This document shows positions 14,546 to 43,526 of a stretch of 64,000 nucleotides of DNA, piece after piece (positions within the stretch are counted from its first letter, which is position 1; each line of letters opens with the position of its first letter). The notes under the pieces are model-generated. The model searched no databases. It was given only the letters and a program-made list of their open reading frames with translations, and was not told the DNA's origin. Source of the DNA: Laetmonice hystrix (taxonomy: Eukaryota); the NCBI GenBank assembly GCA_965235115.1, contig OZ249436.1, forward strand, positions 19,904,001-19,968,000. The letters run 5' to 3'. The position numbers were made by a program, and so were the translations under genes.

Positions 14546-15205
14546 TCACCGAGACACAATCTCTACATAGAGTCCCTTTTCCGAAAGTTCGTCCCGGAAA
14601 GGTGCTAACAATTTGATAGTTTCACTCTCCCTAACATGAAGTTTGATGATGGGATAGTTGTGTCCCTTCTCTCCCAGACATTGTAGCGCACTCGCCTGCA
14701 CCATGCGTGGTACACACCCATCCATGGCATCCTTCACGACCAGCTGTAGGCTGTTTATAATGTGTTTCTCTTCCTGCTGATATGGCTGTACCAGCAGCTT
14801 TAGGTTCGCACTCAGACGGTTTTCTTGCATCGTCATAAAAAGGCGCCGCTGATCAAAAGACACGTCTGGAGACGATACGACCCAGTAACCGACCGCGGGA
14901 TGAACGTGGTAATGACTGCTCGACGACACTTTCTTTGACACTGTCGATTTTGTGGCGGTCAAAGCGGACACAAAGAAAAGTACGCCAGGCAGGTCATAAA
15001 CGATGTTGTCCAGCTCTTCCCGGAGTTCGACCAATCTCTCCTTGATGACCTCCGACGAGGCAGAGTCCCTCCCGGACCATCCCATCCGGAAGGCACACAC
15101 TTTCCAATTACTGCTGAGGACTGGTTCCGCCAGTTTCTTCGTGAAAACCTGTCTGATAGCTGAACTTCGGAGTTGAGGCGCAGGAAGGATAACGTCCGCT
15201 TGGAT
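14546..15205 (-). CDS. Alternative terminal exon V19, ~215-aa array domain
   Basis: Acceptor ttgttacttcag|ATC, phase 0; family motifs AFRMGW, VSALTAT, HPAVGYW, KLLVQPYQQ, VKDAMDGCVPRMV; stop at 14546. Confidence 0.85.
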   Translation of the reverse strand: MQADVILPAPQLRSSAIRQVFTKKLAEPVLSSNWKVCAFRMGWSGRDSASSEVIKERLVELREELDNIVYDLPGVLFFVSALTATKSTVSKKVSSSSHYHVHPAVGYWVVSSPDVSFDQRRLFMTMQENRLSANLKLLVQPYQQEEKHIINSLQLVVKDAMDGCVPRMVQASALQCLGEKGHNYPIIKLHVRESETIKLLAPFRDELSEKGLYVEIVSR

Positions 15206-16349
15206 CTGAAGTAACAATGGTCACCAGTTAGGCAGTCCGTTTCGTTTAGCATTCCGTTTTTACAGTCCACTGTTTTGAGATGTATGACATATAGAATATA
15301 TTGTACAAGACAGACACCGCGTGTTCTAGAAGTCCAATACATATTTTATTATTCCGTTTGTCACCAAGACAATATGCCATGAACTAATGGAAGTGAAGAA
15401 CAGGAACAGACAATCCAGGATGAAAACATAGGAACACTAGCAAGAACATCTTTGGCTGTCAGTCGACACCCCCGCAAAACGTAGAGGTAAACACAATAAA
15501 ATTGAAAAAACTCCGGTCCTATATATCCATCCATACATGTACCCACAAAGGCCTTTCCAAATGGTCATCAATAGCAAAGATAATGTTTATGTTTAGAATT
15601 GGTCTCTCTTCATAAGGGTGTGAACCAGCATCAGGAGGCGAGGGACTGTAAGACTTGGTCTGACGAAATATTGACCTGATGCTACCACATGGTCATTTCG
15701 TTAAAGGAAAGAATTTATAAACTTTACATCTGTTCCAAATATCTTCAAGCTGAATAAATCTTTAAAAAAGTAAACAACTGCAAGGGGCTAGTTCATCATA
15801 GCCTTACATGGTGCCTTGCAGTAGCTTACCCAGGGGAGGTGCTTGGGTTGCTCAAGCACCCCCATCAATTTTTTTTAAAGGTCAATGGGGGAACTGCCCA
15901 CAGCCCCCTCCCAATTTGCAGTGCGTATACGACGTTGGTTATTTTCAGCCCCCCCCCCCGGTCCAGTTTCTGGGTACGCCACTGCCTTGCCTCCATATTT
16001 TTCAAACTCTAGATTAATATTTGAAATAAAAATAAATAGAAACTTAATATAAATTTACTGATAACCTAGAAGATATGTTTTACTGAACATAAACAATACA
16101 ATTCATGTCTTTATCATCACTATAGAGTGTGCTCGGAAGAAAGTGGGCCTACTCGTTTTAGGCGCCTTGACGCAAATTTGGGCGCACCTAAAAGATAAGG
16201 CCTGACAAAAGATAATCTCTATCTATCGGTTAACAATCATCATCACAGAAATGCACAATTAAAACTGTCGAAAGCAAAAATGTGGTCTCTACATTTTTAG
16301 AAGGCAAGTTCTGTTACGATGCCGACGCCTTTCTCTGAAGTGTGCCATT

Positions 16350-17024
16350 TTAATCCTCATCTTCACTGCCGTGTGTCGTCAGAAAAATTTCGGAGTGAAA
16401 CCTTCCTTTCTCCAGTTCATATGTGGCTGCCTGCAAAAGTTCTGTGAGACTTTTGTCTGAATTGTACATCCTTACAAGGGCGTGAGGTTTATCGGCAACA
16501 GCGCTTGGACTGGTATCAACCATGTGTCGTACACATCCTTCCATGTTGTCTTTAACGACGGCAAATAAAGCATTGCGGATATCGTCATCCGACTGCTGGT
16601 AGGGTTGAAGCTGCAGCTTCAAAGTCGCACCTACACTGTTACTCTGAAGTACAGTACAAAATCCATGGCGGTCGGCAATTGGATTGTATGTTACAAGCCA
16701 ATATGACACGCCTGGTACGACCTTGTAGTAGTTGCCTGCAGGACTTTTTACTACAGAGTGCGTGGCATTTATTGCAGAGACGAAGAAGACAGTTCCCGGA
16801 ATGGTTTGCACGAGGGTGTCCAGGTTTTCGCGCAGTGTGACGATATGATCCCAACGGCTCCGCGTGGCGCTGTCGTCTAGCTTGCCCCAACTCATACGGA
16901 ATGCCGACACGTTCCAGCCTCTGTCCAGGACTGGGCGGACAATGTGGTCCGACAGGGTTTTTCGCACTTGCTGAGATCGCAGTGACCCGGCTGACCGCAC
17001 TGGTTCACTGGGATAAACTGACAC
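16350..17024 (-). CDS. Alternative terminal exon V18, array domain
   Basis: Acceptor cttttccactgcag|GTG, phase 0; AFRMSW, VSAINAT, PGVSYW, QPYQQ, VKDNMEGCVRHMV. Confidence 0.85.
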   Translation of the reverse strand: MSVYPSEPVRSAGSLRSQQVRKTLSDHIVRPVLDRGWNVSAFRMSWGKLDDSATRSRWDHIVTLRENLDTLVQTIPGTVFFVSAINATHSVVKSPAGNYYKVVPGVSYWLVTYNPIADRHGFCTVLQSNSVGATLKLQLQPYQQSDDDIRNALFAVVKDNMEGCVRHMVDTSPSAVADKPHALVRMYNSDKSLTELLQAATYELEKGRFHSEIFLTTHGSEDED

Positions 17025-19083: not shown

Positions 19084-19384
19084 CTGGAACGTAAACCAGA
19101 CACTCACGCATAATTCAACCGAGTTGAAAATATACATGTTAACAATTTATTATAGACTATAGATGCCCCTGCCTACGTTCACCCTATGCACATCGAAACA
19201 TCCTATACATCTATGACGAAGGTTGAAACATCCTAACCCTTCATATATTTTCCCATCAAGATGCTTGCAAGAAAGATCTAATACACAGGCCTGTTGGCAC
19301 ACATTAGCTAACAGTATCGTCCAATTCGGTTTCGGGTTATCTTGCAATGTTGAGTCATAATATGGCTCCTCGTTCGGGACCACA

Positions 19385-22272: not shown

Positions 22273-22447
22273 CTGCAGACAGAACATAAACTGTTAGCTG
22301 ATGTTTTCCATGCATGCACCTCACAACTGCCATACTAAACTGGCAGGCAAGAAAAGTATAGCTTCATGTGTCATAAGCATCTGGTTGGCGACCTTCACGG
22401 TTGGTTGAACAGTATGGGCAGCCATGAAAGATAAAAATGGGAGGATA

Positions 22448-23098
22448 TTAGACGAGGACTACTTCCGAATGGAAACGTGCCGCCCGCAGCTGGTTTACTG
22501 CCAAGGACACCATGTCTACTGCATCACCACATCCTACACAGATCTTCACTATCGGATGTGGAGAAGCTGCCAGTGTTATTGCACTGGCATGGACCATTCT
22601 TCCCACACAGCCCTCCATGTTGTCCTTTACCGTGATGTAAAGCGCATTACATATAGCCTTCTCGGTTTTCTGATACGGCTTCAGCTGCAGCTTCAGCGTT
22701 GCTCCTACCTGGTTGTTATGCATGTGTGTAAAGAGTTGGGAGTCTGTTAGTGGGGTTTCAGTAACAACCCAATAGGCCACACCCGGGAATACTCTGTATC
22801 TGGTAACACTGGGGCCCTGTTTTTGGTGCGACTGAGTTGCTGTGACAGCAGAAAAGCAAAAGACCATTCCATCAATCTGTTGCACAAGGCTGTCAAGACC
22901 GGTACGCAAATGTACTATCTGCTCCCAGAGGATTTGGTTCTGGCTTTCATTTTGCCACTGCCAGTTCATTCGAAATGCAGCCACGCTCCAACCACGTTGC
23001 AAAACTGGGCCTACAATTTGCTGTGAGAGAATCTTTCGTACTGGTTCACACCTCAATCCAGGTGATGGCATTTTGGTTTCTCCTGAGGAGTTACTCAT
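22448..23098 (-). CDS. Alternative terminal exon V14, array domain
   Basis: Acceptor gttttttcttcag|ATG, phase 0; AFRMNW, SAVTAT, FPGVAYW, KPYQK, VKDNMEGCVGRMV. Confidence 0.85.
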   Translation of the reverse strand: MSNSSGETKMPSPGLRCEPVRKILSQQIVGPVLQRGWSVAAFRMNWQWQNESQNQILWEQIVHLRTGLDSLVQQIDGMVFCFSAVTATQSHQKQGPSVTRYRVFPGVAYWVVTETPLTDSQLFTHMHNNQVGATLKLQLKPYQKTEKAICNALYITVKDNMEGCVGRMVHASAITLAASPHPIVKICVGCGDAVDMVSLAVNQLRAARFHSEVVLV

Positions 23099-23444
23099 CT
23101 GAAGAAAAAACACAAGAGTGCTTCAGCAAAACGGTGGTCAAATACAACGGTTCACAACCAACAAATCTATTCGTAACATGGTTCCTACATCGGGTACTTT
23201 TAACGCCTTTCTACTAGTATATAGATGTTATCTCAGCTTTATCATTGTTGCTTTCAGCCCTTGTAATTTATATTCTGTCACACAATATTACTTTTGCAAA
23301 GCCATTCATCAACATAATCAACGTATACTCCATATGAAACTACAACTCGTTTTGATGTCAAAAGATTTGACCTGCTCCGTTCAAAATGTCCTTTACCGGC
23401 ACTTGCTAACCCTTTTCTCTGTCACACTGACCTTTCCCTAAGTT

Positions 23445-24107
23445 TTATGAGATGACCTCTATTTCAGCATAAAAGCGTGCAGCTCGTAACTGTTCTATAA
23501 CTTCTGACAGCATGCTGTTGGCCTTCGGATCGACCACATACACCTTTACAATAGACTGGGGAACAGTTGACAGAGCTCTGGCACTGGAATCAAACAATCT
23601 TCGCACACAACCCTCCATGTTGTCTTTGACCGCATTATAAAGAGCCTGGCAGTAATGTTTCTCCGTCTGTTGGTATGGCTGCAGCTGCAGCTTTAATGTT
23701 GCACCCACTGGATTGTTTTGCATGATTGTGTAGAGATGGCGACTGTCAGACTGTGGCTGATTTGAAACCAACCAATAGGCTACTCCTGGGTGCACCTTTA
23801 AACTACTGCAGGAACTGCTGGCGACTGCTTTCTGTTGGGAGGTGGTGGCAGTCACTGCTGATACAAAGAACACTGTTCCTGGCAGTGTCTGTACTAGCTG
23901 GTCAAGGTCTAACCGAAGCTGGACGATTTGATCCCATAGGCTCCTTGTTATTATTTCATCTTGCTTGGACCAGCCCATCCGAAATGCAGATATATTCCAA
24001 CCATTTTTGACACTGGGGCTAACGATGCCCTTGGAAAGGATATTCCGCACAGGTTGAGACCTCAGTCCAGGAGCAGGCCAAATGGGATCATTTGAAGAAC
24101 TGCCGAC
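23445..24107 (-). CDS. Alternative terminal exon V13, array domain
   Basis: Acceptor attttcacttcag|GTC, phase 0; AFRMGW, VSAVTAT, HPGVAYW, QPYQQ, VKDNMEGCVRRL. Confidence 0.85.
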   Translation of the reverse strand, partial: VGSSSNDPIWPAPGLRSQPVRNILSKGIVSPSVKNGWNISAFRMGWSKQDEIITRSLWDQIVQLRLDLDQLVQTLPGTVFFVSAVTATTSQQKAVASSSCSSLKVHPGVAYWLVSNQPQSDSRHLYTIMQNNPVGATLKLQLQPYQQTEKHYCQALYNAVKDNMEGCVRRLFDSSARALSTVPQSIVKVYVVDPKANSMLSEVIEQLRAARFYAEIEVIS

Positions 24108-24521
24108 CTGAAGTGAAAATGCAGAACATTTACATTGCTTCCTTGATCGTCCAGAGCAGTGTATGATTCAAGATCAGATTAGGCAATGGCTGTCCACTGA
24201 AGCAAACCACAGGAACACTTTTACAGGCCCTCACCATCCAAACCCAAATTCTTCTTGCAATCTTTCGTACTGATATCTTTTATTTGTAAATCAGATCTCA
24301 GCTACGGATTGCAATGTCATAACATGATGGCTGGTCTGCACAGGTCAACCTATAAAGTGAGCAATGATGGTTCTACGACGTGTCTGCATTTTCTGGGATG
24401 GAATATTGCACAGTCAATGGGACCCGTCTCCTGTGTCAACAATTCAATTGGAGTTCTAGAACCAGGTTTAACCCTCACCTGGTTGGTTGGAGGGGATTGT
24501 TTTAAGATTTAATTTTCAGCT

Positions 24522-25190
24522 TCAGACTCCAGCTTTCGTTGGTTTTAGTTCTACCAATTTGACAGGAAACTTGACTTTGTCCAGATCAGAGCACACCTGC
24601 TGAAAGCGTCTCTTTGCTTCACATCCCCTAACATAGATTTTGACGAGAGGGCATTCACCCCCTGCCTGCCCTGCCCTCTCATGCACAGCAGCCTGGGCTA
24701 TGCTGCGGGAGACTAAACCTTTCAGGTTGTCTTTGACAATCTGGAACAAAGAGGCAGCTATTACTTTCTCCTCGGTTTGGTGTGGTTGCAGGGTGGGTTT
24801 CACAACAGCTCCCAGCTCATTCTTCTGCATGACAGAATAAAGGAACCTTTCATCAAAATCGCCATCAAATGATATGACCCAAAAACCAACACATGGGTAC
24901 ACATTATACTTCTTGTTTAGGACAGCTGTGGCTGTCAAAGTTGAGAAAAAACACTGAATGCCAGGGACATTCTCCATTTCATCATCCAGGACTCTCTGGT
25001 AGGATATAATATTTTTCCATACAAGTTCTCTGGTTTCAGGTTCCTGGGTGTTCCAGCTCATACGAAAGGCCATCATTTTGCAACCATTTTTGATACTGGG
25101 CCTCACGATCCCCTTGGAAAGGATATCCCGCACAGGTTGAGACCTCACTCCAGAAGCAGGCCAAATGGGACCATTTGAAGAACTGCCAAT
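24522..25190 (-). CDS. Alternative terminal exon V12, array domain (chimera of the V13 5' end and the pseudo-exon body)
   Basis: Acceptor attttcacttcag|ATT, phase 0; open to stop at 24522; 25081-25597 matches 23998-24482, and 24506-25085 matches 28209-28680. Confidence 0.8.
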   Translation of the reverse strand: MGSSSNGPIWPASGVRSQPVRDILSKGIVRPSIKNGCKMMAFRMSWNTQEPETRELVWKNIISYQRVLDDEMENVPGIQCFFSTLTATAVLNKKYNVYPCVGFWVISFDGDFDERFLYSVMQKNELGAVVKPTLQPHQTEEKVIAASLFQIVKDNLKGLVSRSIAQAAVHERAGQAGGECPLVKIYVRGCEAKRRFQQVCSDLDKVKFPVKLVELKPTKAGV

Positions 25191-25582
25191 CTGAAGTGAA
25201 AATGCAAAACATTTACATTGTTTTCTTGTTCGTCCAGAGCCGTGTATGATTCAAGATCAGACTCGGCAATGGCTGTCCACTGAAGCAAACCACAGAAAAA
25301 CTTTTACAGGCCCTTGCCATCCAAACCCAAATTCTTCTTGCAATCTTTCGTACTGATATCATTTATTTGTAAATCAGATCTCAGCTACGGATTGCAATGT
25401 CATAACATGATGGCTGCTCTGCACAGGTCAACCTATAAAGTGAGCAATGATGGTTCTACGACGTGTCTGCATTTTCAGGGATGGAATACTGCACAGTCAA
25501 TGGGACCCGTCTCCTGTGTCAACAATTCAATTGGAGTTAACAAGTTAACTCTAGACCTGCGAATGTAATCTCCACATTGGGT

Positions 25583-26254
25583 TTAACCCTCTCCTGGTAC
25601 CACTAATTCCACGGGAAACCTTGCAGTAGTCAGACTATCATGAGCTTCTTTTCCAAGCTGCACATCATCATCTCGTAAAATATAAATCTTGACAATTGAT
25701 GGTTGCCCTCTGGCACCAACACTGAACTGTGAGCTAGCATCCACCATTCGCCTGACATTGCCCTCTACATTATCTTTAACCACCGTGTATGCAGCATTGC
25801 AAATGTCCTTTGAAGACTGCTGGTAAGGCTGAAGCAAAAGCTTTATCGTAGCCCCAAACATATTGGCTTGCATGTGGCTGAACATCTGTCGCTCGTCAAA
25901 AGCTTCACTGTCTGCAGCCACCCAGTAGGCCATGCCTGGATGGACCCGGTACTGGGGCCTCGTGTCCTTGCCAGACTGGGTTGACTGTGTAGCAGTAATG
26001 GCCGACACATACATGCGGATTCCACTCAGTTCAGCCAGCATCTTGTCGAGCTTGTCGCGCCATCCTACAATTTGGTTCCAAACCTCCTGTATGTAGTGAT
26101 CTTCTTGTTTGATCCAACTGAGGCGGAAGGCGGACACTCTCCATCCCCGCTGTAAGACGGGCGTGATCAGGCTGCTATTGAGAGCCTCCTGAACGGTCCT
26201 TGAAGTTAGTTTCCGTGCCGGCAACGTCAACTTGCTGGGACCTAAAGCCCCCAT
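25583..26254 (-). CDS. Alternative terminal exon V11, array domain
   Basis: Acceptor ttgtcacttcag|ATG, phase 0; AFRLSW, VSAITAT, HPGMAYW, QPYQQ, VKDNVEGNVRRMV. Confidence 0.85.
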   Translation of the reverse strand: MGALGPSKLTLPARKLTSRTVQEALNSSLITPVLQRGWRVSAFRLSWIKQEDHYIQEVWNQIVGWRDKLDKMLAELSGIRMYVSAITATQSTQSGKDTRPQYRVHPGMAYWVAADSEAFDERQMFSHMQANMFGATIKLLLQPYQQSSKDICNAAYTVVKDNVEGNVRRMVDASSQFSVGARGQPSIVKIYILRDDDVQLGKEAHDSLTTARFPVELVVPGEG

Positions 26255-27250: not shown

Positions 27251-27397
27251 CTGAAGTGCAAAAAATAGGAAAGAAGACTGAGTCTGCTTGTTTTGATAAA
27301 GCCTTAATCATTTAGACCTATACTCCACCTCAAAGTTACTCCCACCTGGAACACCAAGATATACTGCTATGTCAAATGTGGCAGTGCACCCTTTAAA

Positions 27398-28063
27398 CTA
27401 CAAGTCATTATCTGTCATAATATCCATGTGAAATCTGGCTGCGGTAAGGACTGGATAAATCCTCTGTAACACATTCTCAGTTAGGGCACTACAATAAAAT
27501 ACTCTGACAATTAGACTCTGGTTAGTGTTGGGCAGCTTGTAGCTGTCAACCGATCTCCTCACCATTCCGTCTATGTTGTCTTTCACAACACTACACAGTG
27601 CATTTGACACGGATTTTTCATCTTTCTGATATGGCTGTAAAATAAGTTTCATTGTCGCTCCCAACTGATTTGTTTGCATTTGGTTGTACAGGATTCTTTC
27701 ATCAAATGTATCATCGGTAGACTGTAGCCAGTACGCTACACCAGGATACACGTTATATTTGTTCTTCGGATGATGCGTTTTTTTCTTATGGACTGCTGTT
27801 GCAGTCAGTGCTGAAAAGTAGCACTGAATCCCCGGGATGATTTTCAATAATTCATCAAGTTTGTCTCGAAGACACATTAATTGACTCCAGATGCCCTGCA
27901 AGTATGCTGCATCTTGACTGATCCAACTCATGCGAAATGCCACTGTTTTCCCACCAGTCTGCAGCAATGCTGGAACAAGCTGGTTTGTGAGGATATCTTT
28001 TACTTGTCTGGCCTGAAGGCATGGAGCTGGGAGGGTTGTCTCGCCTTGGTAAGCTGCAGTCAT
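27398..28063 (-). CDS. Alternative terminal exon V9, array domain
   Basis: Acceptor gttctcgcttcag|ATG, phase 0; AFRMSW, FSALTAT, YPGVAYW, QPYQK, VKDNIDG. Confidence 0.85.
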   Translation of the reverse strand: MTAAYQGETTLPAPCLQARQVKDILTNQLVPALLQTGGKTVAFRMSWISQDAAYLQGIWSQLMCLRDKLDELLKIIPGIQCYFSALTATAVHKKKTHHPKNKYNVYPGVAYWLQSTDDTFDERILYNQMQTNQLGATMKLILQPYQKDEKSVSNALCSVVKDNIDGMVRRSVDSYKLPNTNQSLIVRVFYCSALTENVLQRIYPVLTAARFHMDIMTDNDL

Positions 28064-28236: not shown

Positions 28237-28780
28237 GTAGACTCCTGCTTTCGTTGGCTTTAGTTCTACCAATTTGACAGGAAACTTGACTTTGTCCAGA
28301 TCACAGCACACCTGCTGAAAGCATCTAGTTGCTTCACATCCCCGACATACACTTTGACGAGAGGGCATTCACCCCCTGCCTGCCCTCCCCTCTCATGCAC
28401 AGCAGCCAGGGATACTTTCATCAAAATCGTCATCAAAATGATCAAATGATACGACCCAAAAACCAACACATGGGTACACATTATACTTTGTTCCAGCAAA
28501 GTCTTTCTTCTTGAGGACAGCCGTGGGTGTCAAAGTTGAGAAAAAACAATGAATGCCTGGGACGTTTCCCATTTGATCATCCAGGACTCTCTGGTAGGAT
28601 ATAATACTTTTCCATACAAGTTCTCTGGTTTCAAGCTCCTGGGTGTTCCAGCTCATACAAAAGGCCATCATTTTGCAACCCTGACATAGAAATGCAGACT
28701 ACCAGTTTGGTCAGAATGTCCCGGGATGGACGACACTGCAGACTGGTTGATGGTTTCTCCTTATTCAGGGCAGAAATCCG
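28237..28780 (-). pseudogene. Pseudo-exon of the array domain
   Basis: Probable acceptor reads CAA rather than CAG (28781-28783); frameshifts; ~150-bp internal deletion relative to 24522-25085, with which it is otherwise highly similar. Confidence 0.8.
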
Positions 28781-30661: not shown

Positions 30662-31306
30662 TTATAGCACAGTGATATCAAACTTTGCAGCCTGAAGACT
30701 TGCTTGTGCTGCATACATGACCGATCTATACTTCATGTCCTTCACATATACCACAACTACTGAAGCGTGTTCTTCTTCTAAAGGGGGGAAAGATTCAGCA
30801 CTAGCAAAAACTAGTCGTCTCATCCAACCATTTGAGTTGTCCTTGACAACAATGTTCAGCGCCGCACCCGTTTCTTTCCTCGACTGCTGATATGGCTGCA
30901 GCAAGGGCTTCAGTGTGACACCAAAGGGCAATTTACTGGTCAAATCACGCAGGCATAATACACCAGTAGTCTGGTCAGTACCAATCCAGTAGGATAATCC
31001 TGGATACACATTGGGCTGAGAGGGGTCAGCCTTTTTGTTCTTGCCAGTATTTGTAGCCGTTATAGCCGAGATGCACACTTGTACCCCAGAGAGGTCCTTC
31101 ACAATGCAGTCCAACTCGTTTCGGATTTGTACAATTCGTGACCAAATATCCACAAGTTGCGAACTTTCCCTCCTAGGCCAACTCAAACGGAAAGCTGAGA
31201 CCATGCTGTTTTCAAGCAAAGGACACACTATATCCCTGTCGAGGAGGTCTCGGACCTGTCTGGACTGGACGGTTGGGGAGGGATTGTGCGCCTCACATGT
31301 TAATAT
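30662..31306 (-). CDS. Alternative terminal exon V7, array domain
   Basis: Acceptor ttttgttttacttcag|ATA, phase 0, open frame ILTCEAHNPSPTVQSRQVRDLL...; AFRLSW, ISAITAT, YPGLSYW, QPYQQ, VKDNSNG. Confidence 0.85.
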   Translation of the reverse strand: MLTCEAHNPSPTVQSRQVRDLLDRDIVCPLLENSMVSAFRLSWPRRESSQLVDIWSRIVQIRNELDCIVKDLSGVQVCISAITATNTGKNKKADPSQPNVYPGLSYWIGTDQTTGVLCLRDLTSKLPFGVTLKPLLQPYQQSRKETGAALNIVVKDNSNGWMRRLVFASAESFPPLEEEHASVVVVYVKDMKYRSVMYAAQASLQAAKFDITVL

Positions 31307-31791
31307 CTGAAGTAAAACAAAAGGTACTTGTCAAACTGCTAGTCCCGACAACGATCCACTGTTCTGGCAATAGTACTACTGAAATGTATACTTTCAAAAA
31401 CAAAAGTGCAACATCATCAAAACTAGGAACATAGCACTTTACACAAGGCAACATGCCCAAGAAGACCGAAAAGGCGTCAAAGTCTTTACCTTGTTAGAAC
31501 CACGTCTGATGAAAGCCAAGAAGGATAGTACTAGAAACACTTTATTTTCACTGATCTGTAGAAAATATTCTGGCCAGTACACTTATAAGTATAAGTTGAA
31601 AGCCGATATTCTATCATACCTAACCTATTAGATAAACCTCATGATGTAGTGTATTCATCATCATACGTCATTAGATGCTACTCATACCAGTAAACATAGT
31701 CAAACTCGAGTTTCTTTTGCTTGAACACTTAAAAATAGAATTACTGGTCAGACTAAGCATGAAACTACATTCATTCCTCAATAGTATGGTT

Positions 31792-32457
31792 TTATTTGTG
31801 ATGGTTCCAGGCACAGATGTCCATGCTCAATTTTACATTGTTGAGGGCCTCCTGTGCCTCCTGCAGCCTCTGCATCTCTGCAGTGCTGTCAGCCACATAC
31901 ACTTTCATTATTGGATGTATAAACCCCTTCTGCTCTTGTTGGAGCTCACTTGCCCTTTTGACCATACGTCTGACACAACCGTCAATGTTGTCCTTGAGAG
32001 CAGTGCACAAAGCACTACAAATATCTCTCTCATTCTGCTGATAGGGCTGCAGCAGCAGCTTCATCGTGGCCCCGGCTGTGTTGGTGTTCATGTGATTAAA
32101 CAAGGCGCGTTCACTGAACGCACTGTCTCGGAGAGCAATCCAATATGCCACCCCAGGATATACCCTACGTTGCTGACTCGCTTTGTCGACGGCTGAAATG
32201 GTGCCAGTTATTGCTGAAACTGCTATATGGATGCCCGAGATTTCTTGCACTCTGTTATCCATAATTTCTTGCAGTGATATAATCCTATTCCACATTTCGT
32301 CCAGGTAGAGTGGATCCTGACTAAACCAACTGAGGCGAAATGCTGTCACTTTGTAGCCCTGTGCCAAATACGGTGAAACAAATACTTGTTGCAGCAAACG
32401 CTTGACTGCAGGGGAGGAGATGGCAGGGGCTGGCAGTGTCATTAATGCAGGGGCCAT
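31792..32457 (-). CDS. Alternative terminal exon V6, array domain
   Basis: Acceptor tttcttctactgcag|ATG, phase 0; AFRLSW, VSAITGT, YPGVAYW, QPYQQ, LKDNIDGCVRRMV. Confidence 0.85.
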   Translation of the reverse strand: MAPALMTLPAPAISSPAVKRLLQQVFVSPYLAQGYKVTAFRLSWFSQDPLYLDEMWNRIISLQEIMDNRVQEISGIHIAVSAITGTISAVDKASQQRRVYPGVAYWIALRDSAFSERALFNHMNTNTAGATMKLLLQPYQQNERDICSALCTALKDNIDGCVRRMVKRASELQQEQKGFIHPIMKVYVADSTAEMQRLQEAQEALNNVKLSMDICAWNHHK

Positions 32458-32594
32458 CTGCAGTAGAAGAAATAAGATGACTAGTTACTACTGATTGAAA
32501 TGCAATGACACGTCCTGTTGCTGTGAAAATAATTTCAAGCGGGTTTTCACACAAACTACGCTAAAGTTCTTGTCATGAAATTTCAGTCTGAAAC

Positions 32595-33230
32595 TCAATA
32601 GGTTTCCACTTCCATGTGAAATTTAACAGAACGGACTTTTTCTCGGAACTGCTCTAGTTGCGCTACATCTGTCATGTTTTGAATGAAGAGCTTAACAATG
32701 GGGTATACTCCAGGGTCTTGGCCCATTGTTGCCACAGCACTGTCAATCATTCTCCGAACACAACCCTCATTATTGTCCTTCACGGTGCTGTAAAGGGCAT
32801 TACAAATATCTTCCTTCGACTGCTGGTATGGCTGAAGTAGCAGCTTCATGGTCGCTCCCAGTTGGTTTTCATGCATCCTGTTGAATATATCTCTTTCCAC
32901 CAGACTACTCTCTCCAGCAACCCAATAAGCAATGCCAGGATAAACAAGTTTTTTTCTTTTTCCAGAAGTTGTGCCAGTTACAGCTGACACAAATCTTCTC
33001 ACCCCGAGAATTTGTTTCATAGATGAATCAAGCTGGTGTCTAAGGACTGTGATGGTGCTCCATGTTGCCCGAAGCCTGTCCAAATCATCTATAAACCAGC
33101 TCATCCGAAAGGCAAAGATTTTCAGGCCTTCTTCAAGGGTTGTCTCCACAATATTTTCGCACAGCACCTCTCTTGCAGCCTTTGACTGAAGTGTTGGATT
33201 CGGTCTTGTCATCAGCAGCTCGACATGCAT
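32595..33230 (-). CDS. Alternative terminal exon V5, array domain
   Basis: Acceptor ggtttcgacttcag|ATG, phase 0; AFRMSW, VSAVTGT, YPGIAYW, QPYQQ, VKDNNEGCVRRMI. Confidence 0.85.
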   Translation of the reverse strand: MHVELLMTRPNPTLQSKAAREVLCENIVETTLEEGLKIFAFRMSWFIDDLDRLRATWSTITVLRHQLDSSMKQILGVRRFVSAVTGTTSGKRKKLVYPGIAYWVAGESSLVERDIFNRMHENQLGATMKLLLQPYQQSKEDICNALYSTVKDNNEGCVRRMIDSAVATMGQDPGVYPIVKLFIQNMTDVAQLEQFREKVRSVKFHMEVETY

Positions 33231-34087: not shown

Positions 34088-37000
34088 CTGAAACCAGATG
34101 AAGAAGTATCAGTATCTGGTAGCCGCGGTTTTGAACTGCACATTAAAGAAGAATGGGCACTAAATAAATACTTTCATTTCAATCATGGAAATGCTTGACC
34201 AAACTACTAAACCGCAATGTCTTGCCTCAGGCATGCGACCTACAAATGAGGGTAAACATCCCACAGGATAGGGTATAGCTTCATGGCAGATCTGATGGCA
34301 CTATGAAAAAATTTAATTATGGTTCATCCTGTCATATATTTCAGTGAAAATCAGATTCTATGTGGCTACGCGTTTTCTTGTAATCAGCTTCAAGTGCGTT
34401 GTACAAATGTACACAAGATCACAGACTCAAAATTCTTGCGCCAGTATTCTATAGTCAAAAAGTCTCTCATCTTTCTGGACTGCCGGTATTTCCCGGCACC
34501 TGCCACAAGTGTTACGGATACATCCTTACATATCTTTCACTTCATGCATAATAATATATTTCCTCTCCTTAATGTTATAGTTCCTTAATACTGAACTATA
34601 TTATATATATTCCCTAGTTGGAGGCATATTGTATATTTTAGTATTTTGTAAGGGTTTGGAGAAAAGCTGTCATAATATTCAGGGTGCTTAATGTCACCAA
34701 TGACACCTATTGTGTTACATGGCTAGCCGGTAAATGCCACTGTGGCTGGTCTACCTGTGAAGGCCTGCCAAGGTTCTGTCAGCTTCTGAGTGTGAAAGCT
34801 GTTAAAGCCAAACCCCTGAATAGTTTGTTAATCCTTTGTTTAACCTCAACAAGGATATATAGAGAGTCCCCAAAGTGATGTGGGGGAGAGAATTGTATTT
34901 ATCGTTGCAACTGTACCTCTGGAGGGTAGGGTGGATATCCCCCTACAATAAAGCGCATATTGGAATACCACAGCTACAAGTCTACAAGTCTTCACTACAA
35001 CTCAACATTCAAGTTGTAACACAAGCTACTCGTCATAACTCATCCAATGATGGATGTGCATGGCTCAATGGGTTCCCCTACTTGTCTGGCACAGGAAAAT
35101 TTGTTTGACTACCATATTTTGCTGCCCAAAAGACGCTCAAGTAAACTGTTCGGGTGTGCTAAGAATATACTGTGAAATATAGAGATTGGTGACCAGAGCT
35201 GTTACCATATAGTTAATATTTCAGCCTTTTCTTTACTCTTCAATCATTAATTACCTGCATGCATTATTCCTCGCGAACGTACCTTTGAACACCCACAACA
35301 CTATGTAACGTAAACGTGCTGCCACATAAAAAATGATCTGATATCAACCGAACCAACAAAAAAGTGAAGAAAGAAGGCCCTTGATATGCTTGGGATATCC
35401 AGGATTAGTATAGCCTATTAGGTGACGAGATCGAGCGTTGTAGCGAGTTCTGTAAGGACCATTTCATTACTGCCCAAACAGATGTTGCGCATCTGCTTCT
35501 GGACATTTGAGCCCTTTTTATTGTAGCCTAGGCAAACTAAAGTATTTTTAAGCTTTTCTGTAAAACTATGACACCTAGAGATAACGTTAAGAAACACAGT
35601 TTTAGGCTTTTAGGGGTAATATCCTGGCCAAGAAATCGAGCAAGGCTGGAACCAGCAGGCTGGTCAGAGACAGAGTGCATGGGGTTAGGCATTGGAAATG
35701 CCAGGTGGTCCTCTTGATAATTCTTTTATTACAGTAATATCCTATTTTCTCCATTATCACACTGGTTCTGTCTTATCCTAGCTGCACAGAAACATGTAAT
35801 CTTACCAGATTTAACTGAAACACCATTTATATACCCGCAATTCTTGCGAATTTTGGCGAGCAAACTGTGCCCCATAATTGGCTGTGAAAAACGCGTGCTG
35901 CGTTTTTGTAGTGTTTACAATCATCCACTCATGAAAATGCGACGTCATACACAGTTTCTCTTCAAGCCAGGCACTCTCGCTCAGGTTGCACATGGACGGG
36001 AAGGGCTTTCCCAACCAACATTTATAAACATCATGCCGTGTCCACGTACAACTGAATCAATGAAGAAACGTAAGAAGTTCGCTCGGGCTCAGAGTAGATC
36101 AAAACCCTGAGTTTATATCGGGTCTGCTTTTGATCGCTGGTTGCATTTACGGGAAGTCTGGGCTTTCGAGCAGCTAACAATGCTTTCAGTGCTTCTACAG
36201 CTGCTAAAAACGTTGGGGCCCAGGTACAACGGGAGATTGCAAACGGTGAAACCCTTCCATTCTGGATTGTCAACAGCAAAAAATATCACCCTTGGAGGCC
36301 CACTCGTCCCCACTCCTGTCTACATAATGTGAATGCGACAGATGTAATTCATTGTAATATAAAATACGAGATAAATCTACTTCTGTTGGGTGATTGCTAT
36401 GAATGGCTCGCTGAAATTCACGTGAGGGAATTCCATTCTTCCAGTTCAAATCCAATGGCGGTGGAATCATGGCATGTTTTACTTTCTATTGGTCGCGATT
36501 TTCTGTGTCCCTATTGGACATTGCAAATATTTGTACACGTCTTTGGTAACATGCAGGAAGTAATATAAGAAAATCGCTAAAATTCTCCTACATTCAACGC
36601 TATTATATTGCTTTAAAGCTCAAGTTACTCCAGAACTTCACAGGACTGTAGGTAACAAGCTTGTTCACCCTATATTATTTTGAATTAATCATGCACATTT
36701 AAGTTTCAATCTAAAAATTAAAACATCATTATAGAATGTTGTCACTGAAATTTCTTTTTAGTATAACTTAAACTACTTCCTCCAAACATACTCGGAGCAA
36801 TACTCTATACATACATAGATTGGCCAGCTTGGGTAAAACAGTAGCATCTGAGAATATCAGAGATTATCATACCTAAAATTTACACCTTAAATTTGATGGT
36901 AGCAAACTGAGAAAAAAGCACAAATTTTATTAATTTTTGTGTGTTTTATTGGTTTCATTTATTAAGTTAACAAATTACTGTAAATCTGCACAAGCATAGC

Positions 37001-37166
37001 CGTCATTTATTCAAAATGAGCTCCTCATACATATTTCAAGCCTCAAGTCGGGTTTTGATCAATACAACTTCAACTCTATCTGATGATTGGTAGCCCATCA
37101 GAGGAGGGGTTTGCATAGCTTGTGCTGTCACCCAGTTAAGGAGGCATCTTTTAACACATTATCCTT

Positions 37167-37691
37167 TCATCTGTGATGTTTACCTTGATATGCTTTCACA
37201 ACACACTGCCACGCATTTTTAACGACTTGTAGTTCCTCTGGTCCTAATGCCATTGTTTCCAGAGGGAAGTCATTGGTATCATAGGGACAATTCCTCATAA
37301 GCATCCCAACGTAAGCAGGCCAGTTCTGGGGTGCACGGTTTGCCGGTTTGCCACAACCGTAAAATGTTCTATGATATTGTTCGCGGCTTATACCGTATCG
37401 TTCTAGTGCTTGCTGCTGGATTCTCTCTGGCAAGCACTTGTAGAAGACCTTGTCTCTACCTGATCGTTGGTAAAACTCACCAACATAATACTTGCTACTG
37501 GAAGTTCGTGTCATTGCATACATAGCATCGATAACACGACTGACACATGTATTCTTCCACCGAGCTAGAAAGCGTGGAATGACAACGCAACCACCAGATT
37601 CGAGGATGGAGATTTGCAGTTCAAACTCTGTGTTCTCATCCACCAGTCGATCAGGCAAACTCTCATCGTCACTCTGGGGCTGCAGACCCAT
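37167..37691 (-). CDS. Alternative terminal exon V3, orphan 174-aa domain
   Basis: Strong acceptor tttccatttccctccag|ATG, phase 0; 174-aa open frame with globular composition; AATAAA downstream (plus-strand tttatt near 37006 and 36945). Confidence 0.7.
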   Translation of the reverse strand: MGLQPQSDDESLPDRLVDENTEFELQISILESGGCVVIPRFLARWKNTCVSRVIDAMYAMTRTSSSKYYVGEFYQRSGRDKVFYKCLPERIQQQALERYGISREQYHRTFYGCGKPANRAPQNWPAYVGMLMRNCPYDTNDFPLETMALGPEELQVVKNAWQCVVKAYQGKHHR

Positions 37692-37997: not shown

Positions 37998-38288
37998 TTA
38001 TGTGAATGAATGAAAGTTCAAGCTTTGATTCTGCACTGATATGTTTCGCTGCAGTTTCCAACAAAGGCAATAAACTACAGCAATAGACATACCAACACTA
38101 TGTCCTTTTGCAGGTTCTCCTACTTTCCGTTTTCGATGATATCGGAAGCGATGCACATTGAGAGCATTACGGTTCTTGCACACCTTACCACACTCTAGAC
38201 AAGGCTGTGGGTAATGAACCACTCGAATGTGCCTCTGCAGCGCCCAAGCACTAAAGTCCCTCCCACACATGGGACACTGCTGGGTCAT
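37998..38288 (-). CDS. Alternative terminal exon V2, 2 C2H2 zinc fingers
   Basis: Acceptor gtttctattgccag|ATG, phase 0; CPMC..HIRVVH and CLEC..HRFRYH. Confidence 0.8.
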   Translation of the reverse strand: MTQQCPMCGRDFSAWALQRHIRVVHYPQPCLECGKVCKNRNALNVHRFRYHRKRKVGEPAKGHSVGMSIAVVYCLCWKLQRNISVQNQSLNFHSFT

Positions 38289-38804
38289 CTGGCAATAGAA
38301 ACACAGCAATATAAAGTCTCAATTTTTGAAAGCCCACCCATACAAATCTACCTTAACTAAAGCAACCAATCATATCACCTCGTTTGCCATTTATTCAAAA
38401 TTCATATAATAGTACTGCTTTAGAGACAAGCATATGTATACCGGTATCAACTCGATAAAGTGCTCACTAAATACCTCCAAAAACCTCGAGCCCGAAGCTT
38501 CACGCGATGAAACTGAAACATTCCTAGGGAGTTACCCAGGAAAAATTCAATGCGGGTCAGTCGTATTTTTCTCATTTTGAAGCCAGGAAATATTTATAAA
38601 ATCTTTCTACCCCCATCGTTGTTAGTACCATAGGAAGGAACGAACATGAGAAGTTATTATGTACACACATCCGATGATGGGCCTAATAAAAATTCCTGCT
38701 GGGCAGCACTTGAACCTTTTGGGCCTTGTGCCGGGTGGCTGGATTGGCTTTACAAAAGTTCAGCTAATACTGGTTTTTATATCCATTCATAGGCAGATCT
38801 GATC

Positions 38805-39005
38805 CTATGAGCCAGGAGAGCCACACACGCTTGGTTTGATGCGATGCTGATGAAAGCGATGTTCCCGCAGAGCCTTTGAATTCCTACAAGTCTTGCCACA
38901 ATGCGGACAGACTTTTGTCGTATGATAACCCGCGATGTGTTTCTGCATGTAGGAGGCACTTGTTAACACCTTACCACAGATCGCGCATTCGTTTCCATGC
39001 ATTAC
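38805..39005 (-). CDS. Alternative terminal exon V1, 2 C2H2 zinc fingers
   Basis: Acceptor gtttgctctgccag|GTA, phase 0; CAIC..HIAGYH and CPHC..HRFHQH; paralogous to V2. Confidence 0.8.
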   Translation of the reverse strand, partial: VMHGNECAICGKVLTSASYMQKHIAGYHTTKVCPHCGKTCRNSKALREHRFHQHRIKPSVCGSPGS

Positions 39006-41797
39006 CTGGCAGAGCAAACATGAAGACATGGCCTTGACTATAGACCTCAGCCTAAACATCCTCATAACCAATATCAGACAATGTAAATATTATAACTTAA
39101 ACAATGTCTAGACCACATTTGCAACTTTGACTTTGTGTGTGTTTAAAACTACGTGAAAATTGCCCCACCATCATGTGCCTGTTGCCTTTCGATCATATAA
39201 AATACCCGAGAGTGCGTGCGTACAAGGTCTTGTTATCCCTGGAGTAAACACTGAAGCACATCGCAAGGCATGTGCTTGCCTTCGACCGTTAAAGTCATGT
39301 CACTGAGAATGATGATCATTTTGCCACGTTTGTAAAATTATTTCAATGCAAAGGTGCATCAGAGAGACAGCAAAAGAAAAATAAAAAAGAACATCAAGAC
39401 CTATATCCTAAATGAGAGGTTGTACAACAAGGAATTCTTGACTAGTTACCTTGAGATTTACAAATAAAACAAGGCTCTGGGAAGGTATATTTAAACATAA
39501 GTTTAGCACTACTTTTGTCAAGTGCTGTTACATATTGCTGTACATGGTGGTTCATTATTTTTTCACATTCTTGCAGCAATATCCTTTCCGAAGAAAGTGA
39601 GAAGGAATCCATCAAGATTTAGTATTATTCAAATTAACATTCTCACTGGACAGTCCATGATTTCTTAGGTATAATGCTATGTCACAGAGTGCAAAGCACA
39701 AGATTTGTCAGGTTAATATGCAGGGAGCCACACCTTGCAATTTATTTTATATCTTTTTCTTTTTGTAAATTTCTTATAAAATTATTTCTAACTACTGACT
39801 AACTACATTCTTGGAATTTTGATTGATATTATAAAGTTTCCAAAATAAATAAAAAAAGATTAAGAAGCTGCCATCAAATTGAGCATCCACTGAATTTCCA
39901 ACCATTAGGCATTTATAAGCCTAAGAGTAGGCCACTGTTAGGATGTTACACTGGTCGCTATCACAACATTTGTGTCAAATTTTGTGTCAAAATTCTGTTA
40001 CCAGATATGGTTAGCACGCAGGACATTAAAGTGGAGCAGTGGAAGTGTTCAACTATCTCTATTAAAGTGTAATTTTATCTTAGATGCCAAGATAAGTTGC
40101 ATTGACAGCTTAAAATTCTTTAAACGAATGCTGTGTATACGAAATAAACTCATTTCCGGGAACTTTAATTTGGGGTAAATATATTTGCAACATTCTAGTT
40201 CAGGGTTTTCATCACACGTACAGCAGTCTTTCAGGAACATTGAGATCAGACAAAATGTCTAATGTTGAAATGCTTGTTTAAAAATATACATCCACAGTCA
40301 CAGAGGAAACCTTTTCTGGTATGTAAATGAAATACCGGTATGTACACTGGACATTGCAAATAAATGCTAATGAAGTAATGTCTGACGGTCTGATGACTTT
40401 TCACTCAGACTGTGACAACATTTGTAACAATTCATTATTCTAAGTCAAACTTCCAATGTCAATTTATAAAGAGTTGTCTCACAATTAATTGCTATGACAA
40501 ATCTTAGGAAAAGCTGAAATATTCAGTCAGATAAAAAAAGCACTACTGAATGACAAAAACACCTACATGTAAATAACCTATAAATTTTAACAAACGCTAA
40601 TTTGCTGTTGTGAATTATATGTTCTAAACTGAGGAAAAAAGGGCAACTGATAGCGGCAATAGCCATCGTCATGTGATGTCAAAATCCATGACAGCAGATA
40701 ATTTCATATACATGAAACATAATAGAATTCCAGTAACCTGACTGAATGCCATTTTTATTTAATCGGCATTTTTAAATATTTGTTTTAAAAACAAACTACC
40801 AGTACCTTCTGAACCTGTGAACCAATTCCTCATTTACTGCGTGCCATGTACTGGAGTTCTTCTATGAATTCATTTTGGTTTAATCAGACAACCACTTTCA
40901 ATTTACTAAGTACTGTAATGACTATCTTTTCAGGATAGCATAAGTAATCCAGTTGTTCCAGATAGGAAAGGTCAGAAGGTAGGTTTGCTGAAGTGAACTT
41001 GGCTCAACCACAAATAAATTTAAAAATCTATAGATCTAAACCATGGACTTCGTATTTTGTACTGTAAATAGTGTCAATTATTTCCAAAGATTGTATGTAG
41101 CCAAAATTTGAATTCACTTCAACAAACGTGATAAGGTTCAGTAATTATACCACCCAAGAAATTAGAGAGCAATTTGCAAGTCTTGCACATCTAGATGTAG
41201 TCAGCAGACTATCAGCATTTTTGTCAAGTTTGTGCGATGAATGCTCGGTTGCCAGAAATAATGCAGTTACCATTCCAGGCATGGATTTGGTCAATCTAAA
41301 ATTCCACAACTTTTCAGGCTTTTCCCGACATGTACAATCTATTTTCAGACATACATGCGAGTTTAAGGCAGAATTTGATGGAGTGGGCCTGCCAAATGCA
41401 TATGGCTTGGTAGCACCTTTCAAATCAAACTGACAAATCTTTATTTTAGAGATTCAGCAATGCTTACAGTGACACTACTGTGCCTACACAGTGGTGTGAA
41501 GTCGGGTACCTTTTTAGGGTATATTCAGGTTTGATGTTCTTATTCTTAAACTTTACAAAGTTGTGGGCCAGGAGAGTCATGTAATTTTGAGGCAGGCAAA
41601 ACATTATTTTAAAACAGCATTTGCAATTTTTTGATGGCTGTTTTATTTTCCATGATTGCCAGATCTGGATTTAACTGAAAATAACTTTGCTTTTTTTTTT
41701 TAAAGATACCAGTTTTAAATTGTTGGATTGTATGACACTACCATTATCACTCTGTAACTTGAAGGGTGGCAAGGTTTATCAGGATAAGATTACCCAC

Positions 41798-42382
41798 CTG
41801 TGATGTAGAACTCATGGCCGCACTGAGCATGGCTGGACTAGCTGCAAATGACTGGGCTGCTGTGGCCGGCCAATTAACTGTTTGGTCTTGGTCCCACTGT
41901 GAACAACCTGGTGCTCCTGGATCGCCCTGCATGTATTGAGCCTCTGGTTGCATTTGGTCAAAGTCGCCTCCGCCGGAGTCGCCATAGAACTCAGCTGCCA
42001 CTTCAGAGTCTGTGACTTCTTCCTTGATAACGATCACGTCACCGGTGTCTTCATGTGGCACATCAGAGCCTAAAGCTGCCTTCTTTGCTGGGGAGTCTGG
42101 GTAGTCACCATTACTACGGCGCCTGCGCCGCCGTGAGGACCCTCCCGGAGATTTAACTGGGGTTTCCGGTGTTGGGCTTTTAGGCTCCTCTGGTGGTGGC
42201 CTTTCAGCTTTCTTGATGGTTTCTTTAATGTTGACCAAAAATATATCCTCATCATCAAGGGTGATGCCCAGCAAACCTTCAATGGTAAAATTGTAGTGAT
42301 ACCCAAGACCATTTTTGCAGAGGACTGTGATTGCCTCTGTGAGGAGGGCCTTGATTCGCTGCTGTTCAGTCTTGAGAACCAT
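41798..42382 (-). CDS. Constant (common) coding exon: N-terminal globular domain plus disordered linker with NLS and IKEE motif
   Basis: Acceptor ctttctttcactccag| at 42400; ATG at 42382 (MVLKTEQQRIKALLTEAITVLCKNGL...EGLLGITLDDEDIFLVNIKE); no stop before donor CAG|GTGGGT at 41798/41797, phase 0 (195 codons). Confidence 0.85.
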
Positions 42383-43526
42383 GATGCCACTTGGAATGTT
42401 CTGGAGTGAAAGAAAGGTCACATGGAACCTACACGTTTCCAGAGTTGTATACCAGGTCTATCTTGTTTCTGATTGTAATCAGACACAAGGTTCATGTCCT
42501 GCATAGGGTCCCTAGTTAAATTAAATCCCACAAAAGGTTTATACATTACATTTCAAATTTCTGGATGATACTTTTTTGTAGCTAAGTTCTGTGAAGCTCT
42601 GCAGACATAAAAAAAAGATAGTCCTTTTTGTCCAACTTTTCAGGGAATCCCGAGGGATACGAGCCAATAAAACAAATAGCTGTAAGTGTATCTGCACCTG
42701 GCACTAAACAGATCGGCATTATCTCAGAAATTTGTTAAATAGCTGATGTGAAATGAGATCCCTGCGTTTGAGAGTTCAGCAAACATGTTTTGGCCTATTT
42801 TCCAAGCTCTTGCCTATTTTCTAGATGTTTCATGCATAAAAATAAGGTGCCCAGTGGTTATTCTGCCAGCGTATGGATGGGTCATGTGACTCAGGGCTCT
42901 CGATGACCCGAGGTCTCGGGTCAAATACGCACGAAGTGTGTAGTCTGATGCACAATAAAAACCAGCAGGAGTCAGTGCGACGCACGGAGATTCCCCCAAT
43001 TTTGACCCCCAGTTGAAAAATGATGCATTAACTATAATCATCTGGAGGTAAGCCAGGGTAAGCTACAGTCGTACAGATGACATTAAGGTGCAACCATGTT
43101 TATCTATTGACAGGATATGCAGGTGAGAGGTAAGCTGGACTAGAGAATGGTATGTTGGGTTACAACCCTCCACCGCAAAAGGCATGCATAATGACTGAAA
43201 TAAATAAAAACGCTCTCGTCGAGTGGCCAATTTCATTATCTACATATGAGCACACTCAACAACACGTTGACTACGAGTTTAGATTAGACAAAAATACTTG
43301 CATGCATTTGACTCTTCAAAGTTGTGAACTGACCATGCTTGACCCCTGACTTTTGAGGTTTGACCCCCCCAAAAAATAGACAGAAGTCTCTGACCCTTCT
43401 ACTGAAAACTCCAGTGAGAGCCCTGTGACTGCAATACTGGATTCTTATTGAATGATGTCTGATGGCAGAATCTAATTAGTGCCCAATTAACAACAATTTT
43501 GGGACGAAACTAACACTAACCCTAAA

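Follow-up and report, generated by a model that had tools for sequence, protein, structure and literature searches.

A 64,000-nt stretch of the Laetmonice hystrix genome (GenBank assembly GCA_965235115.1, contig OZ249436.1, forward-strand positions 19,904,001 to 19,968,000; G000:C1:19904001-19968000 in our numbering), hereafter the window, carries on its minus strand what is very probably a single gene, in which one constant coding exon is completed by one of 19 alternative terminal exons (tails) spread over 24 kb. Two tails encode C2H2 zinc-finger pairs, one a domain of 174 aa, and 16 are paralogues of one domain of ~215 aa, called here the variable domain. The features of the gene are listed below in window positions; the variable-domain exons were recognised by profile match and alignment, and X1 is a sequencing run introduced further on.

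44802..44856, minus strand: 3' part of a non-coding first exon, with the donor G/GTAAGT directly below 44802
41798..42400, minus strand: constant exon, with acceptor 42401/42400, ATG at 42382, 195 codons and the phase-0 donor CAG/GTGGGT at 41798
38805..39005, minus strand: terminal exon 1, C2H2 finger pair, 66 codons (zf-C2H2, E 3.6e-9; top-scoring acceptor)
37998..38288, minus strand: terminal exon 2, C2H2 finger pair, 96 codons, starting with ATG (Pfam; X1 depth in its bin)
37167..37691, minus strand: terminal exon 3, 174-aa domain of a second unnamed family, starting with ATG (X1 contig 37122-37604)
33425..34087, minus strand: terminal exon 4, variable domain, 220 codons (copy used for the structural model)
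32595..33230, minus strand: terminal exon 5, variable domain, 211 codons (X1 contig 32459-32916)
31548..32457, minus strand: terminal exon 6, variable domain, 221 codons, stop at 31792 and 3' untranslated region (UTR) to ~31548 (the sole junction seen)
30662..31306, minus strand: terminal exon 7, variable domain, 214 codons
29900..30556, minus strand: terminal exon 8, variable domain, 218 codons
28231..28698, minus strand: decayed partial copy of the 25190 exon, without acceptor (91-98% identity to 24516-25085)
27398..28063, minus strand: terminal exon 9, variable domain, 221 codons
26582..27250, minus strand: terminal exon 10, variable domain, 222 codons (X1 depth in its bin)
25583..26254, minus strand: terminal exon 11, variable domain, 223 codons (X1 contig 25730-26184)
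24522..25190, minus strand: terminal exon 12, variable domain, 222 codons (partial X1 cover)
23445..24107, minus strand: terminal exon 13, variable domain, 220 codons (X1 contig 23137-23788)
22448..23098, minus strand: terminal exon 14, variable domain, 216 codons (X1 contig 22440-22975)
21604..22272, minus strand: terminal exon 15, variable domain, 222 codons
19385..20041, minus strand: terminal exon 16, variable domain, 218 codons
18406..19083, minus strand: terminal exon 17, variable domain, 225 codons
16350..17024, minus strand: terminal exon 18, variable domain, 224 codons
14546..15205, minus strand: terminal exon 19, variable domain, 219 codons, the last of the array

The constant exon begins ...cactccag/AACATTCCAAGTGGCATC ATG..., its first ATG standing in good context (ATCATGG), and runs stop-free to ...TCACAG/GTGGGT in phase 0. 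It encodes an N-terminal domain of ~57 aa as well as a run of arginines, an acidic segment and a PGCSxW motif (here PGCSQW ... Q/GTGGGT); beyond the N-terminal domain it looks disordered. An earlier interpretation of the window from its letters alone (the sequence-only reading) had described an exon with a start codon, no stop and the phase-0 donor CAG/GTGGGT, and such an exon is indeed found there, with the donor at 41798 and the ATG at 42382 as proposed. The exon begins, however, not at the ATG but at 42400, after an acceptor of its own, and in addition to that description the gene has a non-coding first exon, ending at 44802.

All 19 downstream open reading frames of the sequence-only reading, each following a pyrimidine-CAG acceptor in phase 0 and ending in a stop, are present at the positions it listed. 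The 20 nt before each CAG are 55-85% pyrimidine, the frame is open from the first base of the exon, and a stop follows after 66-225 codons (19/19). When all AGs from -150 to +45 were ranked by a crude, frame-blind score (pyrimidine count plus YAG), the proposed acceptor came first in 14 of the 19 exons and second to fourth, among 5-20 AGs, in the other five. As had also been proposed, many tails (10/19) have no ATG at the acceptor; they open with GTA, CAA, ATA (two tails), ATT, GTC, GTG (three tails) or ATC. In seven of these ten no ATG comes before the conserved core, the first one lying within or beyond it, and a start there deletes the conserved N-terminal third; stand-alone translation of the tails is therefore unlikely. 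The two finger-pair exons match Pfam zf-C2H2 with E-values (E) of 1e-9 and 4e-9. A profile built from the 16 variable-domain paralogues (alignment A1) and run against the six-frame translation of the window recovered the 16 exons and one fragment (28396-28698, profile positions 31-116), with no other match. The fragment belongs to a 17th, decayed variable-domain copy that the earlier description lacked, and is a recent partial copy of the 25190 exon.

The constant exon was found in four sequencing runs (X1-X4), all from one sample and one study and none recorded as RNA. The library type of X1 (58 Mb of contigs) is recorded as '?', and its nature was judged from its coverage behaviour. Run coverage was compared in 30 bins over a 20-kb stretch that takes in 14 of the 19 tails, the exons from 22272 to 15205 lying outside it. 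X1 has depth in 17 of the 30 bins, all on exons or repeats, and X2-X4 cover 30 of 30. This exon-only cover, together with a spliced GT..AG joint, means that X1 behaves as complementary DNA (cDNA). The joint is carried by an X1 contig of 1568 nt, whose depth of 31.9 is the second highest among the X1 pieces listed: 31548-32457 is joined to 41798-42401, and the 9340 nt skipped have the ends CT..AC on the plus strand, that is GT..AG on the minus strand. A 54-letter remainder of the same contig matches 44803-44832 exactly, beside the G/GTAAGT donor and 2.4 kb upstream of the constant exon, and an AATAAA lies 245 nt past the stop of the 32457 tail, where the contig ends. The contig thus shows a transcript made of a non-coding 5' exon, the constant exon and the 32457 tail with its 3' UTR.

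De Bruijn contigs stop at branch points, so at most one path out of the donor can be visible in them. Accordingly, of the junctions expected from the sequence-only reading, that of donor 41798 with acceptor 32457 was recovered, and the other 18 acceptors are not among the contig joints, which show one path at most. Contigs of X2-X4 contain no 41798-32457 joint. X1 also covers 8 of the 14 tails in the stretch compared (38288, 37691, 33230, 27250, 26254, 25190 in part, 24107 and 23098); its absence over the tails 39005, 34087, 31306, 30556 and 28063 within the same stretch is evidence neither way. No sign of spliced-leader trans-splicing was seen, the sole contig reaching the 5' side entering a genomic exon and not a leader. 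In X2-X4, word depth rises to as much as 7800 at 34446-37113 and 38448-39114, versus ~30-85 elsewhere, so these segments are high-copy repeats inside introns; contigs of the same runs carry a 516-nt deletion allele at 34503-35020, probably the presence or absence of an insertion.

The pairing of head and tails recurs across the genome (627 Mb in 35 contigs searched). The head exon has 41 matches at E<=0.1, of which 36 were kept; four were dropped for E>1e-3, and one because another match already represented its frame. For the variable domain there are 56 matches, grouped in 10 places and none with an internal stop, and every one of the 56 lies 1.7-51 kb downstream of a head-exon paralogue on the same strand; the share of genome positions and strands meeting this condition by chance is ~0.16%. 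There are 17 copies at the studied locus, 17 at C1:46.6 Mb, 7 at C1:29.3 Mb, 6 on C2, 2 each at C1:36.8 Mb, on C18 and at C3:12.9 Mb, and 1 each at C3:44.5 Mb, C1:20.76 Mb and C1:20.80 Mb, which would amount to at least 56 alternative last exons in the genome, with up to 17-19 per locus. The 174-aa domain behaves in the same way, with 7 genomic copies at 5 loci, 7/7 downstream of a same-strand head paralogue. With six copies besides the one in the window, it is not the orphan domain that it had been taken for; the rest of the exon content given by that reading, two C2H2 exons and 16 paralogues of a ~215-aa domain, holds.

Splice sites were read at nine paralogous loci. A phase-0 GT, 4-30 codons before the frame closes, ends all nine head exons examined, and a PGCS(S/T)W-type motif precedes the donor in seven of them. 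At the start of the domain, a phase-0 pyrimidine-AG is present in 22 of 23 paralogous tails and is the top-scoring AG in 17 of 23; no phase-0 acceptor is visible in the one remaining tail (L022, 2836-3495). The gene family has ~36 head exons in the genome, and at least 13 of them feed such tails. It is concentrated on one chromosome-sized contig, C1, which holds 30 of the 36 head-exon and 45 of the 56 variable-domain matches. One further paralogue of the head exon (L034, G000:C1:19879000-19882500) lies on the plus strand 24 kb before the start of the window and ends ..GQET/GTGGGT. Inside the window, three plus-strand frames (3730-4269, 6396-6980 and 7537-7878) have phase-0 acceptors and end in 2, 2 and 3 C2H2 fingers, respectively; they are probably alternative tails of the L034 neighbour, which would converge tail-to-tail on the studied locus.

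Besides its 36 matches in its own genome, the head domain matches 22 longer proteins (E from 4e-18 to 5e-5). An alignment of 21 head sequences (A2) has 4 invariant and 12 near-invariant positions, with the consensus ..DQERV..LLT.TVTLLCKNGL.....IEGLIGITLD..DVFLVHINE, and several of the relatives end '...Q V', which is the read-through of the same donor. In P0003, P0005, P0032 and P0037, all on transcript-sized contigs, the head is followed by C2H2 fingers, and P0263, a gene model of the annelid Paralvinella palmiformis (NCBI 'hypothetical protein LSH36_79g11012'), combines the head with a C-terminal C2H2 pair. Two proteins fuse the head to the other kinds of tail. In P0125, a 444-aa protein encoded on a 2237-nt contig, one frame contains the head (residues 1-52, E 1e-16) together with the variable domain (residues 225-389, E 4e-20); in P0268, of 514 aa and from a 1952-nt contig, the head is accompanied by a relative of the 174-aa domain (E 7e-8). 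Such fusions are what the splicing model predicts, their contigs being either cDNA or intronless genes. For the variable domain, a word-indexed search of longer proteins gave no match; an exhaustive profile search then gave 327 representatives, 185 of them at E<=1e-10 and most of them frame-sized (200-250 aa).

The studied gene is a member of an unnamed C2H2 family, typified by Paralvinella LSH36_79g11012; the shared features are the N-terminal domain of ~57 aa, a long linker of disordered sequence and, at the C terminus, a pair of C2H2 fingers. A single large head exon that ends, with a phase-0 donor, soon after a PGCS(S/T)W-type motif is found in the gene, in seven of the nine paralogues read and in the neighbour L034. 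The ancestral form was probably a head with a C2H2 pair. Unlike the listed relatives, which have a single product with one tail, the studied gene has 19 tails and two further tail families.

The 16 variable-domain paralogues of the locus are 28-69% identical. Their median proportion of synonymous differences (pS) is 0.79, which is saturated, the ratio of nonsynonymous to synonymous change (dN/dS) in the closest pair is 0.25, and 16 of the 17 variable-domain copies at the locus are intact. Since the synonymous sites are saturated and yet all paralogues stay open, the open frames are not due to chance; the variable exons are old, with frames kept by purifying selection. Two of them, the 24107 and 25190 exons, share 88% identity over 300 nt (23959-24258 versus 25042-25341), a segment made of the acceptor region and the first ~50 codons, and their domains are only 40% identical in protein overall. 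This similarity of the 5' ends points to recent gene conversion or a partial duplication restricted to them.

Scanned against Pfam with the E limit set at 1, the constant exon gave no BTB domain, its only match being STN1_2 at 0.16. The AlphaFold2 (AF2) model of the head, built on the 21-sequence alignment, consists of a helix (3-23) and a beta-hairpin (31-57) with a mean confidence (pLDDT) of 72; structural matches to it were uninformative, the best being pseudopilins at Z 4.1. We infer that the ~57-aa head is a shared self-association or cofactor-recruiting module. Pfam gave no family for the 174-aa domain or for the variable domain, the latter queried with 16 and with 69 members (the wider set of relatives), and a sequence search of the PDB with the variable domain returned only noise (E>=0.049).

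The AF2 model of the variable domain (34087 copy) is an alpha/beta sandwich of high confidence (pLDDT 86.7; predicted template modelling score, pTM, 0.85). Foldseek against the PDB gave nothing at E<=1e-3. The best solved fold match is SIRV1 ORF119 (2x3g; Z 7.2, root-mean-square deviation 3.0 over 112 residues), although a Z below 8 may mean a common arrangement only; this protein belongs to the Rep superfamily. It is followed by the Rep endonuclease domain of Vientovirus (Z 6.4) and, at Z 5.0-5.8 and amid generic ferredoxin-like domains, by Helitron, RAYT, parvovirus NS1, nanovirus, circovirus, RepB and geminivirus Rep. Among the predicted viral structures of BFVD there are seven matches at E<=1e-3, and five of the six named rows in the top 50, most rows being nameless, are replication initiators. 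The histidines of the HUH site are not conserved, as no column has His in more than 5 of the 16 paralogues or 25 of the 69 wider relatives. Conserved tyrosines (15/16 and 14/16) are found in a 'YW' strand and in 'QPYQ', neither clearly helical, and the helix position in 'LYxVVKD' varies between Y, F, C, H, Q and N. If the variable domain descends from a Rep nuclease, it has thus lost the HUH site. A Rep-like nature of the domain is possible, though we would sooner doubt it than adopt it. That the tails act as some kind of target-recognition module we consider somewhat more likely, because the same donor also feeds zinc-finger tails.

An alternative that accepts the exon architecture in full, and comes not far short of even standing, is that the ~215-aa tail is a ligand- or protein-binding ferredoxin-like domain and that the locus diversifies something other than promoter targeting. 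The fold matches are indeed middling, the best Z of 7.2 staying below the caution line of 8; they are mixed with HMA, ACT, EF-1beta and S6 domains; no DNA-binding family is matched at the sequence level; and a protein-language-model look-up gave CDC45/DHHA1 (0.94). Against this, the longest structural alignments (95-150 residues) are to Rep origin-binding or nuclease domains, and the family context is one of DNA binding, because the C2H2 exons share the donor and relatives of the head carry C2H2 fingers. The CDC45/DHHA1 lead itself (protein atlas score 0.94, 175 shared features) found no support in Pfam or in the fold comparisons: its recognition value of 1802 is below the line of 2300, neither PF02724 nor PF02272 appears at E up to 10 with 16 or 69 members, and no CDC45, DHH or DHHA1 chain is among the 50 fold rows shown.

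That a single constant exon, not of BTB type, is spliced to many different terminal exons, as the sequence-only reading proposed, is supported by four independent lines: the observed junction, the pairing of all 56 variable-domain copies with head exons, the phases at the paralogues and the fusions in proteins of other organisms. In the mechanism that we favour, one promoter upstream of 44.8 kb would produce a long primary transcript, in which the phase-0 donor at 41798 would pair with one of the 19 phase-0 acceptors, use of the remaining 18 junctions being predicted. The chosen tail would supply the stop and, in 12 of the 19, a canonical polyadenylation [poly(A)] signal located before the next acceptor. 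As every tail has its own stop and 12 have their own poly(A) signal, each messenger RNA (mRNA) would consist of the shared head and exactly one tail. The choice among the tails would take place in cis, with splicing competing against 3'-end formation, and the tails would serve as interchangeable target-recognition modules, most likely DNA-binding.

Several observations weigh against this mechanism. The junctions seen number one of 19, in contigs of one run without a recorded library type. Seven of the 19 tails have no AATAAA or ATTAAA ahead of the next acceptor (gaps of 105-346 nt). An X1 contig (25129-25447) is collinear with the genome across the 25190 acceptor, so some RNA reads through the tails and 3' ends may be shared; in the seven tails without a signal the 3' UTR probably extends into the next tail, and X1 contigs ending at 32459 and crossing 25190 fit this. 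Finally, in nine of the 19 tails, which come from three tail families unrelated to one another, ATG follows the acceptor at once, which would permit separate translation. In a tenth tail the second codon is ATG, and most of the remaining first codons (ATA, ATT, ATC and GTG) are one base from ATG; the pattern, also present at the paralogous loci, is far above chance. Such an ATG may have survived from the start codon that a captured frame once had, or it may be a sign that some tails are translated separately.

The principal mechanistic alternative is that the tails have promoters of their own and are joined to the constant exon by trans-splicing, a route that would give the same proteins by another mechanism and that we regard as improbable. 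It would suit the nine tails with ATG right at the acceptor and the close packing of the tails (gaps of 105-516 nt for 13 of the 19), and there is a precedent, as all mod(mdg4) mRNAs are made in this way according to the portions of PMC6237743 and PMC12692577 available to us. However, the position of all 56 tails at the 10 loci, downstream of the head and on its strand, is required by cis-splicing and not by trans-splicing. Moreover, the U1-like motif AGGTAAGT is absent from the locus and its long intron, its single match in the window (1765) comparing with 2.05 expected, though this is a weak test, the motif being a stand-in for the fly element. A row of tandem single-exon genes, with the observed junction a minor read-through chimera, is hardly credible: nine of the 19 frames do begin with ATG, and public protein sets do list relatives as separate frames of 200-250 aa, but those lists come from intron-blind gene calling, ten tails lack an initial ATG and in seven the first one would remove the conserved N-terminal third, the acceptor of each copy agrees in phase with the head donor, all 10 genomic arrays stand behind a head exon, fused proteins exist in other organisms, and the joined contig is among the deepest X1 pieces listed (second, at 31.9).

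In its design the locus comes close to two known systems of Drosophila, mod(mdg4) and lola. mod(mdg4) has at least 30 alternative terminal exons, mostly with one recurrent FLYWCH domain thought to be derived from a mobile element, and some of its tails are on the opposite strand; lola isoforms are partly made by trans-splicing. Like mod(mdg4), the studied locus has a big terminal-exon array dominated by one recurrent domain (16 of 19 tails); unlike it, all tails are co-oriented and downstream, none of the 19 is FLYWCH and there is no BTB domain, and the mod(mdg4) mRNAs arise from separate promoters, as far as the accessible portions of PMC6237743 and PMC12692577 state. In lola, a constant 5' coding block is combined with ~20 alternative 3' terminal exons, 17 of the 20 isoforms having C2H2 fingers (PMC11426971, in the parts available). 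The likeness lies in the constant block and the many 3' exons with their own stops, two of the 19 tails here being C2H2 pairs as well. The differences are that most lola tails are zinc-finger pairs and 17 of the 19 here are not, that the lola head is a TTK-type BTB and the head here a ~57-aa helix-plus-hairpin domain, and that the constant coding part here is a single exon, in a design repeated at ~10-13 loci of one family. The available parts of PMC11426971 report the TTK motif as absent from Annelida and Mollusca and TTK-type BTB as absent outside arthropods. Because of this reported absence, and with no BTB match here, the description of the locus as an independent, non-BTB version of the lola/mod(mdg4) design was a fair one. 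The locus works like lola and mod(mdg4) but does not belong with them, because it has neither their BTB head nor, in most tails, their C2H2 or FLYWCH domains. We found no literature on this head, on this tail or on lola-like arrays outside arthropods, though RefSeq isoform models of related species may already show such isoforms.

A third comparison is with transposase capture. Cosby and co-workers (2021) reportedly described host-transposase fusion genes that arise when a transposase frame is captured as a new terminal exon. In the cases reported, a host exon is spliced to a foreign frame whose start codon closely follows an acceptor; here nine of the 19 tails have ATG at the acceptor, and Rep domains of viruses and transposons are the nearest, if weak, matches to the tail fold. 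No donor element was identified for the tails, and, unlike in those reported cases, the tails here were amplified into arrays after the putative capture. It is conceivable, although we think it unlikely, that an animal lineage built its own counterpart of lola and mod(mdg4) in which the main tail is a catalytically dead Rep origin-binding domain of a single-stranded DNA virus or a Helitron, captured as a terminal exon (with the ATG as a relic) and amplified, so that a large and combinatorial repertoire of DNA binders, each sequence-specific, is expressed from few promoters. If this were true, the repertoire might be aimed at mobile elements, as are the KRAB and FiNZ zinc-finger genes; FiNZ is a different, 28-aa fish domain (PMC10547256, in the part available).

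Two other frames of the window deserve mention. Just below the last tail and on the same strand, a 366-codon frame (12471-13568, minus strand) matches DDE_Tnp_4, a Harbinger/PIF-type transposase family, with E 2.5e-14 over profile positions 1-101 of 158, and looks like a decayed transposon. On the plus strand, a 654-codon frame (59741-61705) is rich in K, S and R and contains three exact tandem repeats of ~37 residues (REQFTVREKSSEKFTPKQDSTKKSVIEAVNIECRV..), with no Pfam family above threshold.

To our knowledge, the textbook cases of terminal-exon arrays that swap the recognition module of a regulator are found in arthropods only and are tied to TTK-type BTB. Here the design reappears with an unrelated head and with two tail domains that lack annotation, and it does so at about ten loci belonging to a single family. 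This raises the questions of whether it is a convergent solution for multiplying transcription-factor specificities and of how exon choice works if every tail has the same orientation. The analysis also defines two or three new protein domains, which have confident models and relatives in the hundreds. As intron-blind gene calling lists the tails as separate small proteins, the true structure of these genes is probably missing from current annotations of such genomes. Finally, if the Rep-like reading of the main tail is true, the family would represent a new class of virus- or transposon-derived DNA-binding domain in animal regulators.

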